Below are positions 6,514-40,383 of a stretch of DNA of 64,000 bases, piece after piece. The notes beneath the pieces were generated by a model that saw only the letters and a program-made list of their open reading frames with translations, ran no database searches and was not told where the DNA came from. The translations under genes and the position numbers were made by a program. The DNA is from a virus. The stretch spans positions 83,249 to 147,248 of the IMG/VR virus record IMGVR_UViG_3300032224_001591; one strand, written 5' to 3'. Position 1 is the stretch's first letter, and every line of letters begins with the position of its first letter.

Positions 6514-6546
6514 TTGGAGATTTAAAAAACAGGTCGTATATTTATA
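6514..6546 (+). promoter_or_regulatory. TTGG-N19-TATATT promoter overlapping a TATTTATA motif
   Basis: TTGG at 6514, TATATT at 6537, TATTTATA at 6539. Confidence 0.65.
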
Positions 6547-6564: not shown

Positions 6565-7230
6565 ATGAAAAAACAAATTAACGAAATTAAAAGAATGCAG
6601 CATATTGCTGGATTAATCACTGAAAGCGAATACCGTCAATCATTAAATGAAGAAACTAATGAAGAAACACTTGATGATGTTACTTTTACTTTAGATATGG
6701 CATTAAATAATATGTTTCCAATGTATGGATTTAAAGCAGGAGACACAGTTACAGGTATTTTACCAGCTGAAGAATTTGCTGATGAAACTAAACGCAATAG
6801 TGCTGAGGATTTTCAAGCAGCACAAGCTTACATTAAGAATAAGGGAGGAGAAATAAAAATTAATTCAAGTGATCCTTATCTTATGTTTAGAAATATAAAC
6901 ATAACATATAAATTGAAAGATAATGGAGATATTGAATACGCAGTAGAAGTTCCAGCTAAAAAAATGGACGAAGCTGAAATAAAAGAAGAAGAAAAAGGTC
7001 TTCCTTTTTTACTAGCTAAAACATGGTTAAACGAATATAATGGTAATATTCAATTTGCGGTCCGTACAGAAGAGATTATAGGTTTTTTATACAATTTAAG
7101 AGATAAAGAATTTAAACAATATAAAGGAGAAATTGAACGTATGTACTTACCATATAAAAAAGCTAAAGACGCTTTTGAAAAGTTATGGGATGAAGCATCT
7201 GTTTTTTCAGATAAAGATCTTAAAGACTAA
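6565..7230 (+). CDS. RMQxxAGLITE-leader protein 1 (putative capsid-internal/cargo protein)
   Basis: N-terminus MKKQINEIKRMQHIAGLITESEY, followed by an acidic body. Confidence 0.75.
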   Translation: MKKQINEIKRMQHIAGLITESEYRQSLNEETNEETLDDVTFTLDMALNNMFPMYGFKAGDTVTGILPAEEFADETKRNSAEDFQAAQAYIKNKGGEIKINSSDPYLMFRNINITYKLKDNGDIEYAVEVPAKKMDEAEIKEEEKGLPFLLAKTWLNEYNGNIQFAVRTEEIIGFLYNLRDKEFKQYKGEIERMYLPYKKAKDAFEKLWDEASVFSDKDLKD

Positions 7231-7231
7231 A

Positions 7232-7306
7232 TAAATAATAAAAACATAAAACATGGCAAACGATTTTAAAAGAATGCAAAAATTAGCAGGTTTAATTACC
7301 GAAGCA
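7232..7306 (+). repeat. 75-bp direct repeat, copy 1 (translation start region plus leader codons)
   Basis: Matches 7789-7863 with one mismatch (7285 A vs 7842 G). Confidence 0.9.
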
Positions 7307-7795
7307 AAGGCTGAAGTATATTCTTATGAGGCAACTCCGGAAAAACAAGCTTTATACGATAAAATTGCTACAGAATTAGAAAAACTTATTAAGGATATAG
7401 CTTCAAAACTAAAAATTAAACCATCTAACATTAGAATATCATGTGATGGGTTATGGGATGATGGAGGTTATAAAAACAGAGGATTAGTAGTTCAAATTAA
7501 AGCTAATGATAATACATGGGAAAAACCATGGAAAGGAAATAATAGAATTATCCAAACCCCAAATAGTGAAGGTATATTAATACACCCCGGAATATCAGGT
7601 AATGGAATAGTTGGTCTAAAGTTAGATATGGATAACACGTATAATAAAGAATTAGAAACTATTTACAAAAAAGCACGAGAACAAAATTTAGGTAAGTATG
7701 TATCCGATTTTAATGTTCAATTAGCAAACTCTCTTACACCACAAGAAATAAAATTAATAGCACCAAACACTCCAATAATAGTAACCGGTAAATAA
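7253..7795 (+). CDS. RMQKLAGLITE-leader protein 2
   Basis: N-terminus MANDFKRMQKLAGLITEA, followed by a unique body. Confidence 0.75.
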   Translation: MANDFKRMQKLAGLITEAKAEVYSYEATPEKQALYDKIATELEKLIKDIASKLKIKPSNIRISCDGLWDDGGYKNRGLVVQIKANDNTWEKPWKGNNRIIQTPNSEGILIHPGISGNGIVGLKLDMDNTYNKELETIYKKAREQNLGKYVSDFNVQLANSLTPQEIKLIAPNTPIIVTGK

Positions 7796-7863
7796 TAAAA
7801 ACATAAAACATGGCAAACGATTTTAAAAGAATGCAAAAATTGGCAGGTTTAATTACCGAAGCA
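7789..7863 (+). repeat. 75-bp direct repeat, copy 2
   Basis: Matches 7232-7306. Confidence 0.9.
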
Positions 7864-8319
7864 CAATCACAAAAATCAAAATATATCCTTACAGATGAAG
7901 AGGGTGATGTTTATTTAAACGACGATGCTATCAAATCATATCTTAAATCAGTAATCAATTCAGAAGAAATTGAATCTGTAAACGATTTTATGAACGATGA
8001 AGAAGGATTTGGAGAATCAGCAATGCATTTCTTTAAAGATGGTAGTGAAGATATATCGGATAAAGATGTTGAAGATTGGGCTAAACAAGAAATGAGCTAC
8101 TATTTATATTCTGAACCTGATGAATTTCCAGGCAAAGAATTAAATGAAAATATATCTGATGAAGCTATTGACCGTATGGAAGGTTTAGCTAACACACATC
8201 ATTTATCAACTTTAAAATTCAGTTTAGAAAACCTAGTTCCAGAATGGATACAAGATGGAGGATTTGATGAAGATGATGTAATTGATTATTTAACACATTT
8301 AGTAAGAAACTCATACTAG
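7810..8319 (+). CDS. RMQKLAGLITE-leader protein 3
   Basis: Same 18-aa leader as protein 2. Very acidic body with an internal LNE. Confidence 0.75.
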   Translation: MANDFKRMQKLAGLITEAQSQKSKYILTDEEGDVYLNDDAIKSYLKSVINSEEIESVNDFMNDEEGFGESAMHFFKDGSEDISDKDVEDWAKQEMSYYLYSEPDEFPGKELNENISDEAIDRMEGLANTHHLSTLKFSLENLVPEWIQDGGFDEDDVIDYLTHLVRNSY

Positions 8320-8333
8320 TAAAAAAAATCATA

Positions 8334-8340
8334 TATTTAT
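8334..8340 (+). promoter_or_regulatory. TATTTAT motif (putative late promoter)
   Basis: Intergenic, before ATG 8364. Confidence 0.45.
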
Positions 8341-8363
8341 TATAAACATATAACTGATAAAAC

Positions 8364-8873
8364 ATGAAAAAACAAATTAACGAAATCAAAAGAATGCAAC
8401 TTATCGCTGGTTTAATTACTGAAAGTGAATATCAAGAGTCAATGACTAAAATAGACGAATCTAAAGATATTAACCAAACCCTAACATCAGGAGGTTTTGA
8501 TCCTATCGATGATGAAAAATTATTGATGAAAGCATCAAAAATTCTATCTTTAATAGGTGGTAATCCAAGTGCAGAAGCAGTTAATGCTCTTGTTATGGTT
8601 ATTGAAGATGCTGAAGGTGGAAATATATCTTGGAATGAATCAATGAACGAAGCTGAAGATACTTTATCATCATTTAAATCATTAGATCAAATGAATGATT
8701 ATCTTGAAAAAGGTGGTTGGGATCCATATGAAGTAGCAGATGAAAAAGCAGAAAAAAAAGGTTTAATGTTAATCAACAAATATATTAAATCTAATATTTT
8801 AGATAAAGGAAAAACTTTATCCCCAAATAAATTAAATGCTTTGTTAATAAAAATCGAAGATTTACTTCCTTAA
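8364..8873 (+). CDS. RMQxxAGLITE-leader protein 4
   Basis: MKKQINEIKRMQLIAGLITESEY. Two internal GG(F/W)DP...DEK...NAL...IED modules. Confidence 0.75.
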   Translation: MKKQINEIKRMQLIAGLITESEYQESMTKIDESKDINQTLTSGGFDPIDDEKLLMKASKILSLIGGNPSAEAVNALVMVIEDAEGGNISWNESMNEAEDTLSSFKSLDQMNDYLEKGGWDPYEVADEKAEKKGLMLINKYIKSNILDKGKTLSPNKLNALLIKIEDLLP

Positions 8874-8903
8874 TAAAACATAATTAAAATAAAAATTTAA
8901 ATT

Positions 8904-8928
8904 AAGCTTGGGAAACCAAGCTTTTTTT
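8904..8928 (+). terminator. Intrinsic terminator
   Basis: AAGCTTGG-GAAA-CCAAGCTT followed by a T-tract, at the end of the leader-gene array. Confidence 0.8.
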
Positions 8929-8936
8929 ATTATCGT
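8908..8936 (+). promoter_or_regulatory. TTGG-N19-TATCGT promoter variant
   Basis: Same 19-nt spacing as the other copies. Upstream of the polA-like gene. Confidence 0.5.
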
Positions 8937-8956
8937 TATCGGAGACAATAGAGGTT

Positions 8957-10237
8957 ATGGCATTTTACTTAATAGAAAATACGGAACAATTATCAACGTT
9001 TTATTACCAAGAGTTCAAACGAGCTTTTGTAGAAGTAATTCCGTTTAATGATTTAGTACACCCAACCTTAAATAAAGTATCATTAGTGTATATTAAACCC
9101 TTAACGGATGATAACGAAAAAGGTTACATGATATGCATTGACCATAGTGAAGCATTAAACGTGCAAATAAAACACGTAAATCAAGTACTTAAAAGCTTTG
9201 ACGAAATATATGTTAGAGACAAGAAAACGTTTTTATACTACTTTCAACTTAAAAGCAGCTTAGACATTACCCACACCACTCCTACGTATATACACCCCAC
9301 AACGCAAGTCCACACACATTTTTATAATACGTATTCTTCGCGACTTGATATAAACCGCATTATACCGCTAGTTAAACACTACCAACGTTGTGAAGCCATA
9401 TTTGAACAAGTAAAAGATCATTGTGTAACCTTAACTAGTAAAACAAATGATGTCTTAGCATATTCATTTCTATTTATTGAAAAAAACGGCATCAAAATAG
9501 ATGAAACATTATTTAAACAATACTTTAAACCTACAAATGAGTCATTTAGCATTAAAGACGGTAAGATTTATACACAATATAACTTACATACTACAACCGG
9601 ACGCCCCTCAAATAGTTTTAACGGCGTTAATTTCGCGGCTCTAAACAAAGACAACGGCTGCCGACAAGCATTCATACCGGAACATGATCGATTTATGGAA
9701 ATCGATATTTCCGCCTATCACCCAAATATAGTAGCGCAACTTGTTGATTATCGGTTTGATAAACCGATTTACGAGGCATTTGCCGAATATGCTGGTGTTG
9801 AAATAAAGCAAGCGAAGGAATTGATGTTTAAACAACTATACGGAGGAATATATACGGAATATAAACAATGGGAGTTTTTCATTAAAGTACAGGAATATAT
9901 AGATAAAATCTGGGAACATTTTGAAACGCTTAATTGGGTTATGGTTCCGAATTCGGGTAAGTATTTTTATAAGGATAGATTGGGTGAAATGAATCCGCAA
10001 AAGTTGTTTAATTATTTTTTACAAAATTTGGAGACCGTAAATAACAGTCGTATCATTCAGGATATAATTAAGGTTTTAAGAGGTAAAAATACAAAGTTGG
10101 TTCTTTATACTTACGATGCGTTCCTGTTTGACTTAGATGATACGGAAAAAGATATTATTGACGAATTAAAAGAGATATTCAGTTCCAGGGAACTGCAAAT
10201 AAAATATAAATATGGAACAGATTACGACTTTGAATAA
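8957..10237 (+). CDS. Short family-A DNA polymerase-like protein
   Basis: TTTGRPS, motif A EIDISAYHP, motif B KELMFKQLYG, motif C YTYDAFLFD. Confidence 0.8.
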   Translation: MAFYLIENTEQLSTFYYQEFKRAFVEVIPFNDLVHPTLNKVSLVYIKPLTDDNEKGYMICIDHSEALNVQIKHVNQVLKSFDEIYVRDKKTFLYYFQLKSSLDITHTTPTYIHPTTQVHTHFYNTYSSRLDINRIIPLVKHYQRCEAIFEQVKDHCVTLTSKTNDVLAYSFLFIEKNGIKIDETLFKQYFKPTNESFSIKDGKIYTQYNLHTTTGRPSNSFNGVNFAALNKDNGCRQAFIPEHDRFMEIDISAYHPNIVAQLVDYRFDKPIYEAFAEYAGVEIKQAKELMFKQLYGGIYTEYKQWEFFIKVQEYIDKIWEHFETLNWVMVPNSGKYFYKDRLGEMNPQKLFNYFLQNLETVNNSRIIQDIIKVLRGKNTKLVLYTYDAFLFDLDDTEKDIIDELKEIFSSRELQIKYKYGTDYDFE

Positions 10238-10685
10238 GCAGCGTAATATTTATTGGGAGAATCTAAACGAAAGTTTTAACCTATTAAATATTACAGAATT
10301 GAATAATAGATTATTTTGTAGCTTTACTACCTTAGATGGCATCGATCCATTAGTAGAGAGTATAACAAATTCATATACGATAATGTACAACAAAATGTTT
10401 GTACTTTATATTAAGAGTACTGATGAGTACGTAGTTACATATAACGTTGAGCAAGGCAATGTTAGTGATATTCCTGACAATACTATATTGGTTCACAGGA
10501 AAAAGGAAAGCAATACATTATATACAATCAATGCGTTAAACGAGTTGATTAAAAAATTAAATGGTGGTGTTGTTAATCCTAAATTTATTATTGATTGGCA
10601 ACATTATAGAAATTGTGTGTTGTTAACCAATCATAACGAGTTGAAACAATTGAATACTAAGATTTACAAGATAGTAGAGCTATAA
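10212..10685 (+). CDS. Hypothetical protein
   Basis: 157-aa ORF overlapping the polA-like stop. The start codon is uncertain. Confidence 0.7.
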   Translation: MEQITTLNKQRNIYWENLNESFNLLNITELNNRLFCSFTTLDGIDPLVESITNSYTIMYNKMFVLYIKSTDEYVVTYNVEQGNVSDIPDNTILVHRKKESNTLYTINALNELIKKLNGGVVNPKFIIDWQHYRNCVLLTNHNELKQLNTKIYKIVEL

Positions 10686-10693
10686 TATTTATA
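10686..10693 (+). promoter_or_regulatory. TATTTATA motif (putative late promoter)
   Basis: Immediately upstream of leader gene 5, which sits alone inside the replication cluster. Confidence 0.55.
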
Positions 10694-10711
10694 CCGTACA
10701 AATAGAACACG

Positions 10712-11278
10712 ATGAACGAGTTTAAAAAAATGCAAAAATTGGCTGGTATTATTACCGAGTCTCAATTAAACGAAGCTGAATTAGAAAATTATATGTTCTT
10801 TTCAAATTTAAAACAAATGAAAAGACAAATTGAAATGATGATGGAGATGGATCCTGTTATGATTGATAGTATTCTTCAAAATGGCCATGATTGGGCTGAC
10901 GATCATATTTCTGAAGCAAAAACTAATATGGATCAAGTATTTGATTTTTTAAAAAATGAAATGGATAAAAGTTATCCATTAAACGAAGAAGTATATGGTG
11001 GTCAATCCGTAGATAGAGGTGAAACTGGATCTTCAATTGAATTTGAAGTAAAAGAAAACACACCAGAATATTATACAATTGATTATACTATTACTCCTAA
11101 TTCAAAATATTCATCTAGATCTGCTGCTAGAAATTATGTACGTACTAAAAAAAGCGGAACAGCACGAATTAAAAAAAATTACGATTCATCTCAAAAAGAA
11201 TGGATAACAGTAGAAGGCGATAGTTTTCTCGTAGGTAAACAGTTCGCAAAAGAAATATTCGGCGATAAAATGGATTAA
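10712..11278 (+). CDS. KMQKLAGIITE-leader protein 5
   Basis: MNEFKKMQKLAGIITESQLNE. Two modules separated by LNE. Confidence 0.75.
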   Translation: MNEFKKMQKLAGIITESQLNEAELENYMFFSNLKQMKRQIEMMMEMDPVMIDSILQNGHDWADDHISEAKTNMDQVFDFLKNEMDKSYPLNEEVYGGQSVDRGETGSSIEFEVKENTPEYYTIDYTITPNSKYSSRSAARNYVRTKKSGTARIKKNYDSSQKEWITVEGDSFLVGKQFAKEIFGDKMD

Positions 11279-11284
11279 AATAAA

Positions 11285-11304
11285 GAGCTTTCGAAAGAAA
11301 GCTC
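11285..11304 (+). terminator. Stem-loop (terminator or processing hairpin)
   Basis: GAGCTTTC-GAAA-GAAAGCTC with no U-tract. Confidence 0.5.
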
Positions 11305-40092: not shown

Positions 40093-40383
40093 ATGAAATT
40101 ACAAGCAGTTTACAATGCAATTATTGTAAAGCCCTTCGATGAAGAGGAAACAATGTACGGAAACATTATCGTTCCAGATTTAGGAAAAGAAAGAAATTTA
40201 AGCGGCACTATTGTGTCTGTAGGACCTGGTCAACATTCCATCTCAGGTGAACTTTTACCTACATTATTAAAAGTAGGTCAAAAAGTTATTTTACCCCAAA
40301 TGGGACCTGTAAAAGTAGAACATGATGGTATTGAATATTATGTGTGCCCAGAAAACCAAGTATTGGCAATTATAAACGATTAA
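40093..40383 (+). CDS. groES: Co-chaperonin GroES
   Basis: GNIIVPD mobile loop, GTIVSVGPG, KVGQKV. Confidence 0.92.
   Translation: MKLQAVYNAIIVKPFDEEETMYGNIIVPDLGKERNLSGTIVSVGPGQHSISGELLPTLLKVGQKVILPQMGPVKVEHDGIEYYVCPENQVLAIIND

Follow-up and report, generated by a model that had tools for sequence, protein, structure and literature searches.

We analyzed a 64,000-nucleotide stretch of viral DNA (positions 83,249 to 147,248 of the IMG/VR record IMGVR_UViG_3300032224_001591; hereafter the window), in which five genes, L1 to L5 (Table 1), begin with the same short N-terminal leader. Our main finding is that this leader is probably a clip-off tag for loading proteins into the capsid, consisting of the docking peptide of the phage's own scaffolding protein and a prohead protease site. 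Such a tag would be similar in kind to the capsid-targeting sequence (CTS) of phage T4, and would have another origin. What we observe directly are sequence relationships, conservation, gene context and site statistics. The source genome, that of an uncultured T4-like phage (147,248 bp, ~30% G+C), carries nearly all of its open reading frames (ORFs) of at least 90 residues on one strand; its nearest cultured relative is Flavobacterium phage vB_FspM_immuto (capsid protein identity 55%; hereafter immuto).

Together with two further ORFs elsewhere in the genome, the five window ORFs start with the consensus x-F/I-K-R-M-Q-x-L/I-A-G-L/I-I-T-E. Within the window the leader takes three forms (MKKQINEIKRMQxIAGLITE, MANDFKRMQKLAGLITE and MNEFKKMQKLAGIITE) and is 16-20 residues long, with K, M, Q, A, G, I, T and E invariant in the five-ORF alignment. 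Downstream of it, similarity among the bodies of the window ORFs was not detectable by BLASTP. The initial annotation, made from the sequence alone, had described five ORFs with a common leader that then diverge, and this description is borne out at the positions in Table 1, all on the forward strand. It had also called most of the bodies acidic, which holds for four of the five (isoelectric point (pI) 4.05-4.77) but not for L2, whose body has a pI of 8.8. A leader profile searched against the entire 147-kb genome, translated in all six frames, returned exactly seven ORFs (E 1e-15 to 1e-18), followed by the C-terminus of the scaffold (its last 11 residues, E 0.006), and no other match below 1; the leader is therefore not a chance resemblance. 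L1 and L4 share 12 of 13 core residues and use different codons at 5 of those 12, which suggests that the leader is selected at the protein level. In relatives, the conservation extends past ITE to about 28 residues (...ITESEYQESLxNE or ...ITESQLNEA), and immuto has two leader genes (gp230 and gp083), starting MKKQILSEQF[KR]RMQxLAGIITES.

The match to the scaffold is the link, absent from the initial annotation, that points to a likely mechanism. This phage has genes for a T4-type portal (PF07230), an S77 gp21-type prohead protease (PF03420, 4.8e-29; phrog_207) and a gp23-type capsid protein (PF07068), the portal gene lying a little upstream of the protease gene. Between the protease and capsid genes is an extremely acidic 380-residue ORF, for which a family match was not found and which resembles T4 gp22 weakly but collinearly (E 0.019); by position and composition, together with this weak match, we assign it as the predicted scaffolding protein, the analogue of gp22. 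A motif scan of the genome located the leader core motif at its C-terminus, which reads ...PIIE/VNAAFERMQKLAGIKK up to the stop codon (here and below, a slash marks a protease-type site or a module junction). The reciprocal search gave the same relationship: when 41 distinct tails from the scaffolds of relatives were made into a profile, its first match was this phage's own scaffold (1e-13), and the seven leader ORFs, no more and no fewer, came next (1e-5 to 0.07).

The tail is conserved well beyond this genome. In about 70 of 80 IMG/VR relatives the scaffold ends [KQ]PI[ILM]E-xNxx[FV]xR[WM]QxLAG[IL]KK, and RMRELAG variants occur. The scaffold C-terminus is ...SEQVSRWQKLAGIIK (...RWQKLAGIIK) in immuto, ...ILNE/SNNVVERMKKLAGIVK (..ERMKKLAGIVK) in Microcystis phage Mel-JY01, ...ILNE/DVEMKSRMQKLADIS in the uncultured phage LR756508 and ...LERIKRLAGL in Rhodothermus phage RM378. 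In the last three of these, leader genes were not found at the sensitivity used. Because the tail is present in distant phages in which leader genes were not found, it appears to be older and more widespread than the leader, and the leader is thus most simply explained as a copy of the tail.

The last residues of the leader form a candidate cleavage site. T4 gp21 cleaves after the Glu of L/I-x-E (PMC9026906). A tripeptide of this type precedes the peptide in the scaffolds (PI-[ILM]-E) and follows it in the cargo proteins (I-T-E), and a cut at either site would detach the peptide from its protein, scaffold or cargo. All 149 leader representatives have the Glu of ITE. The bodies behind the leader are depleted in such sites: with one representative per BLAST component, the observed-to-expected ratio of (L/I)xE is 0.82 in the payload bodies versus 1.25 in the other ORFs of the genome (Mann-Whitney p = 4e-6), while the control tripeptide (L/I)xD is equally enriched in both.

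At the boundaries between modules a different pattern is seen. Every boundary examined (in L1, L3, L4, L5 and L7, a leader ORF outside the window) has an [LM][ND]E linker (MDE/A, LNE/N, MNE/A, LNE/E and the like) no more than about 10 residues away, and several coincide with it; [LM][ND]E tripeptides are enriched almost fourfold relative to shuffled sequences (z = 17). In the AlphaFold model of L3 (predicted local distance difference test score, pLDDT, 71), the low-confidence linkers 13-21 and 102-111 overlap or adjoin the ITE and LNE sites; in that of L5 (pLDDT 64), the low-confidence stretch 86-92 covers the LNE site. This pattern fits folded parts that would have been selected to survive a protease specific for (L/I)xE, joined by linkers that would be meant for cutting.

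To follow the leader beyond this genome, we searched a 30-position profile against 1.84 billion representatives, with a cut-off of E ≤ 1e-3, and obtained 744 protein clusters at 50% identity. In the best 150 of these 744, the match lies almost always at residues 1-33 of proteins of 35-511 residues. A word-index protein search gave 8 close relatives only, so that the exhaustive profile search was required to find more. Leader loci in IMG/VR were retrieved with an exact degenerate DNA pattern, which matched at least 120 stretches: 145 of the 149 leader copies lie 6-16 residues from the start Met, and 119 of 120 leader loci among the matches listed share other genes with this phage, indicating that the tag is confined to one lineage. 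DNA and protein BLAST found no close relative of the leader array among cultured phages, and no paper with the motif came up when the full text of the literature was searched for the motif strings.

The bodies behind the leader are far more variable, forming 54 BLAST components among 148 proteins and 107 among 274, with a median pI of 4.6. The counts of leader copies and payloads that the initial annotation had proposed thus come to seven ORFs in the genome, 744 clusters and 54-107 unrelated body groups. The payloads are mosaic: those of the window consist of one to several modules, which are recombined differently in other proteins. The acidic bodies of L1 (pI 4.6) and L3 (pI 4.05) each contain two modules, with junctions ...KKMDE/AEIKE... 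and ...GKELNE/NIS..., respectively; in L5, a helical N-terminal module meets a beta-rich C-terminal module at ...SYPLNE/EVYGGQ.... The body of L4 is acidic (pI 4.4), and its C-terminal module is found again in other proteins. The basic body of L2 is a single module; its orthologues P0001 and P0002 start with the other type of leader, and P0003 is fused to the C-terminal module of L3. Scans of Pfam, PHROG and NCBIfam found no family match for the seven leader proteins and a single one, an NT5C nucleotidase domain, among the 149 leader-bearing representatives. Foldseek searches of the PDB with the models of L3 and L5 found no match at E ≤ 0.001. Genomes differ in their number of leader copies, from 0 to 7; one complete close relative has 0 and others have 1-4. 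The metagenomic proteins P0010, P0059, P0116 and P0021 carry two leaders each in a single reading frame, either duplicated or in tandem units of leader and payload, and could be polyproteins or merged neighbouring genes.

The leader genes also share a promoter-like motif with structural genes. The motif ATATTTATA occurs 33 times in forward and 2 times in reverse orientation in the genome. It lies 10-35 nucleotides (nt) upstream of the portal gene, of an ORF of the head cluster and of large ORFs that are assigned by position to a tail or baseplate module, and likewise of genes with a T4-CTS-like leader and of L1, L4, L5 and L7. In the annotated genome of immuto the motif is found before the leader gene gp230 as well as before the genes for tail sheath, tail tube and terminase. 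A motif had been noted before the leader units in the window; we find ATATTTAT(A) before L1, L4 and L5 but not before L2 or L3. Since L2 and L3 lack such a motif and have 19 nt of upstream sequence in common with L1, they are probably co-transcribed. L5 stands by itself inside the replication cluster, forming an independent unit with its own motif and hairpin, as had been described, except that the hairpin lacks a T-run on the forward strand. At least 6 relatives have a leader gene placed between those for the protease and the scaffold, and leader genes of relatives are often found near phage chaperonin genes.

Table 1. Leader genes, promoter-like motifs and hairpins (window coordinates unless marked as genome)
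Feature	Position	Strand	Remarks
Motif ATATTTATA, late-promoter-like	6538..6546	+	19 nt upstream of L1
L1, leader gene, 221 aa	6565..7230	+	leader MKKQINEIKRMQHIAGLITE at 6565-6624
L2, leader gene, 180 aa	7253..7795	+	leader MANDFKRMQKLAGLITE at 7253-7303
L3, leader gene, 169 aa	7810..8319	+	leader at 7810-7860
Motif ATATTTATT, late-promoter-like	8333..8341	+	upstream of L4
L4, leader gene, 169 aa	8364..8873	+	leader MKKQINEIKRMQLIAGLITE at 8364-8423
Terminator-like hairpin AAGCTTGG-GAAA-CCAAGCTT and T-run	8904..8933 (hairpin 8904-8923)	+	ends four-gene array before polymerase gene
Motif ATATTTATA, late-promoter-like	10685..10693	+	upstream of L5
L5, leader gene, 188 aa	10712..11278	+	leader MNEFKKMQKLAGIITE at 10712-10759, then SQLNE/A
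Palindromic hairpin GAGCTTTC-GAAA-GAAAGCTC	11285..11304	.	after L5; T-run on minus strand only
Further leader ORF, 248 aa, outside window	genome 28192		variant ...AGIKLNE; genome motif scan
Further leader ORF (L7), 491 aa, outside window	genome 30861		genome motif scan

These observations suggest the following mechanism. The tag would consist of two elements: a docking peptide, F/I-K-R-M-Q-x-L-A-G-L/I, that appears to be a copy of the C-terminal tail of the phage's own scaffold, and directly after it an I-T-E site of the type cut by T4-type (S77) prohead proteases. The leader genes would be transcribed late, from a promoter of the ATATTTATA type. The leader would bind the scaffold-tail site in the assembling prohead, which by analogy with the scaffold C-termini of P22, 80alpha and herpesviruses is most likely on the inner face of the gp23-type capsid protein or in its N-terminal region, and by occupying this site the proteins would be co-assembled into the prohead. 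The activated protease would cut after ITE, and probably also at the L/M-N/D-E linkers and at the PI-x-E of the scaffold. The payload modules, freed inside the head, would stay there and may exit with the DNA at infection. The initial annotation had proposed a packaging tag, and the evidence that now bears on this proposal is favourable and all indirect: the S77 protease, the invariant Glu of ITE, the copy of the scaffold tail, the promoter-like motif, the mosaic payloads and the avoidance of (L/I)xE.

Several points weigh against the tag as we read it. Every functional step in it is one that we infer, from binding and packaging through cleavage and retention in the filled head to ejection. 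Instead of the capsid protein, the scaffold tail might have the protease, the portal or the scaffold as its partner. Covariation between leader and scaffold tail was not seen (scaffolds have RWQ, RMRE and other variants, leaders [RKH]MQ), and there is thus no covariation signal for a shared binding site. The acidic payloads might be expelled by the incoming DNA, like scaffolds; the internal proteins of T4 are basic, unlike most payloads here. The same genome contains a separate class of T4-CTS-like leaders, beside which the leader would be a second tag. The tag is dispensable, as some complete relatives without a leader gene show, and ATATTTATA is read as a late promoter from gene context only.

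Three other explanations of the shared leader have to be weighed. The one that survives best takes the leader proteins for accessory components of the core or scaffold, comparable to T4 gp67 and gp68, that help assembly or fill space; they would enter the prohead by way of the peptide, be degraded or expelled at maturation and never be delivered. Such proteins might well be acidic like the scaffold, carry protease-type sites at their module linkers and be encoded, as some leader genes are, inside the protease-scaffold-capsid operon. Coiled-coil proteins of two relatives (G002 and G004), which have a CTS-like N-terminus and a docking peptide near the C-terminus, show just such a scaffold-like layout. 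We nevertheless regard this explanation as unlikely: the extreme diversity and mosaicism of the bodies and a copy number that varies from 0 to 7 do not suit a conserved assembly role, and the avoidance of (L/I)xE in the folded modules suggests selection to survive the protease.

The second explanation, to which we give little credence, is that the peptide is a tag recognized by some other partner (a host factor, the phage GroEL/GroES pair or a prohead protease exosite, for example), and that the proteins are cytoplasmic and not packaged. The choice of partners for the scaffold tail, the chaperonin genes near many leader genes and the missing covariation between leader and tail are all compatible with it. 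However, the motif is strictly terminal, with a protease-type site on its body side in scaffolds and cargo alike; the promoter-like motif is shared with the portal gene, and immuto has it before its sheath, tube and terminase genes too; and avoidance of (L/I)xE is expected only of proteins exposed to the head protease. Mimicry of a chaperonin mobile loop was considered separately and rejected, the mobile-loop region of the phage GroES being unlike the motif.

The third sees in the shared 5' end nothing but a joint between cassettes at the DNA level: recombination or gene conversion would maintain a constant region for ribosome binding and initiation, and the peptide would have no function. It accounts for the 19 nt common to L1, L2 and L3 upstream of the ATG, for the leaders of L2 and L3, which differ by 1 nt in 54 and so point to recent duplication or conversion, and for the leader swaps and payload fusions in relatives (P0001, P0003, P0004), but is highly improbable and in its pure form was rejected on the synonymous differences, because identical residues are encoded by different codons, the peptide is conserved over the 744 clusters and recurs at the scaffold C-terminus, where there is no initiation region, and recombination at the leader, although real, leaves that conservation unexplained.

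It is instructive to compare the proposed capsid-loading tag with known systems. In T4, the internal proteins IPI, IPII and IPIII, and also the Alt propeptides, carry a short N-terminal CTS that ends in (L/I)-x-E and is cut by the gp21-type protease (PMC9026906, PMC3012670). The likeness, known here from sequence, lies in a short N-terminal propeptide on unrelated, fast-changing proteins, in the (L/I)-x-E end and in the T4-type portal, protease and capsid genes. The T4 CTS is of the MKTYQEFIAE type, with which the leader (F-K-R-M-Q-K-L-A-G-L-I-T-E) shares, by eye, only the final x-x-E; by its sequence it falls outside the T4 CTS family, in keeping with the earlier description of it as sequence-distinct. 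The tag here is also longer (16-20 residues, with conservation to ~28), its payloads are mostly acidic and modular, with linker sites, and it appears to copy the C-terminal tail of the scaffold, whereas T4 gp22 ends ...VYAKVASRF, without such a motif.

A parallel to the docking peptide is found in herpesviruses. In herpes simplex virus 1 (HSV-1), the C-terminal scaffold peptide of UL26.5/UL26 docks on the major capsid protein, and the protease cuts just upstream of it, at the M site; the protease is itself carried into the procapsid because it shares this tail with the scaffold. The scaffold described here likewise has PI-x-E just upstream of a conserved 16-residue tail. In contrast to the nested herpesvirus genes, in which the tail stays C-terminal, the peptide is here N-terminal on many unrelated genes, with the cut site after it. 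The two marks of scaffold-tail docking, identity of the peptide and a predicted release site between peptide and body, are both found here at the level of sequence.

Two other systems reach the capsid through the scaffold. The SaPI1 protein CpmB mimics the C-terminus of the phage 80alpha scaffold; its role is to redirect capsid size, not to tag cargo. An engineered P22 virus-like-particle system with scaffold fusions loads arbitrary cargo into procapsids (PMC9962691). In both of these, and by analogy perhaps here, a C-terminal element of the scaffold gives access to the scaffold-binding site of the capsid; unlike the proposed tag, the P22 system is man-made, uses a C-terminal domain of ~160 residues and involves no release by a protease. 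The diverse cargo proteins of encapsulins have at one terminus a short peptide by which they attach to the interior of a shell with the HK97 fold. Unlike the proposed tag, encapsulin tags are usually C-terminal, are not cleaved, do not derive from a scaffold and act in a compartment free of DNA.

A broader interpretation, which we put forward as speculation, is that the leader is a portable code: any protein given the ~13-residue scaffold peptide and I-x-E would be loaded, clipped and delivered with the DNA, the payloads being a recombining library of more than 700 clusters, in the form of polyproteins cut at L/M-N/D-E linkers, that would serve as anti-defence effectors in the first minute of infection. 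The initial annotation had raised injection and an anti-defence function. This proposal gained no support from the payloads, which match no Pfam, PHROG or NCBIfam family and, in the two AlphaFold models, no known fold; for an anti-defence role the evidence speaks neither for nor against. If the proposed capsid-loading tag is confirmed, it would explain how widespread aquatic T4-like phages load a fast-changing set of proteins into their virions, it would provide a short natural encapsidation tag for phage engineering, and hundreds of small domains without assigned function would become candidate injected effectors for screens of defence and counter-defence. The origin of the tag suggests a concrete mechanism: the cargo would borrow the docking peptide of the scaffold and be released by the protease that frees the scaffold.

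The second class of leaders (MKKSELKKYIKETIIAE.., METTKFKKLIKEAVKEAIQEE.., MDKIKKLIKEALL..) is found outside the window, at genome positions 42569, 9568, 35631, 36637 and 38450 (L003 4569-5042 and others). It resembles the N-terminus of the scaffold (..NRDLLKEAIADAK.., L003 11783), so that both scaffold ends may have served as templates for tags. T4 gp22 starts MLKEQLIAE/A, which is near the T4 CTS. T4-CTS-like motifs also occur at C-termini, as ..MKKSEFRAMIKEEILKTLK (L002 8274-8612), ..FRSVLKSMIKETLK (L024 1598-2377) and ..LRSVIAKLIKEELK (L021 7108-8115), the latter two in proteins encoded just before the prohead protease. The coiled-coil proteins of G002 (L096 1084) and G004 (L092/L100) have ~170-340 residues and are mini-scaffold-like, with the docking peptide near the C-terminus flanked by sites (..xLNE/SFLKMQKLAGVITE/AQY..). 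A conserved protein of ~56 residues, encoded in some relatives between the protease and scaffold genes (L024 2995-3165; L078 8506-8679), consists of the leader and ..EEEYKAKLWYKKYSENISK...; in L142 and L206 the same unit is placed after an N-terminal domain instead.

Between the four-gene array and L5, window positions 8957-10685 hold a 426-residue ORF with a weak match to family A DNA polymerase (E 3e-4) and a 157-residue ORF, syntenic with immuto gp001 and gp002; the slot of L5 is occupied in immuto by gp003, which has a different leader (MENFDLKKFLVENRL..). Across the whole genome, the 8-mer ATATTTAT(A) is strongly strand-biased upstream of genes (53 forward, 6 reverse), with examples at window positions 51, 6538, 8333, 10685, 25128, 28677, 40054, 45747 and 62199, and it also precedes the phage GroES gene at 40093. 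Compared with the T4 late promoter TATAAATA, its reading direction differs.

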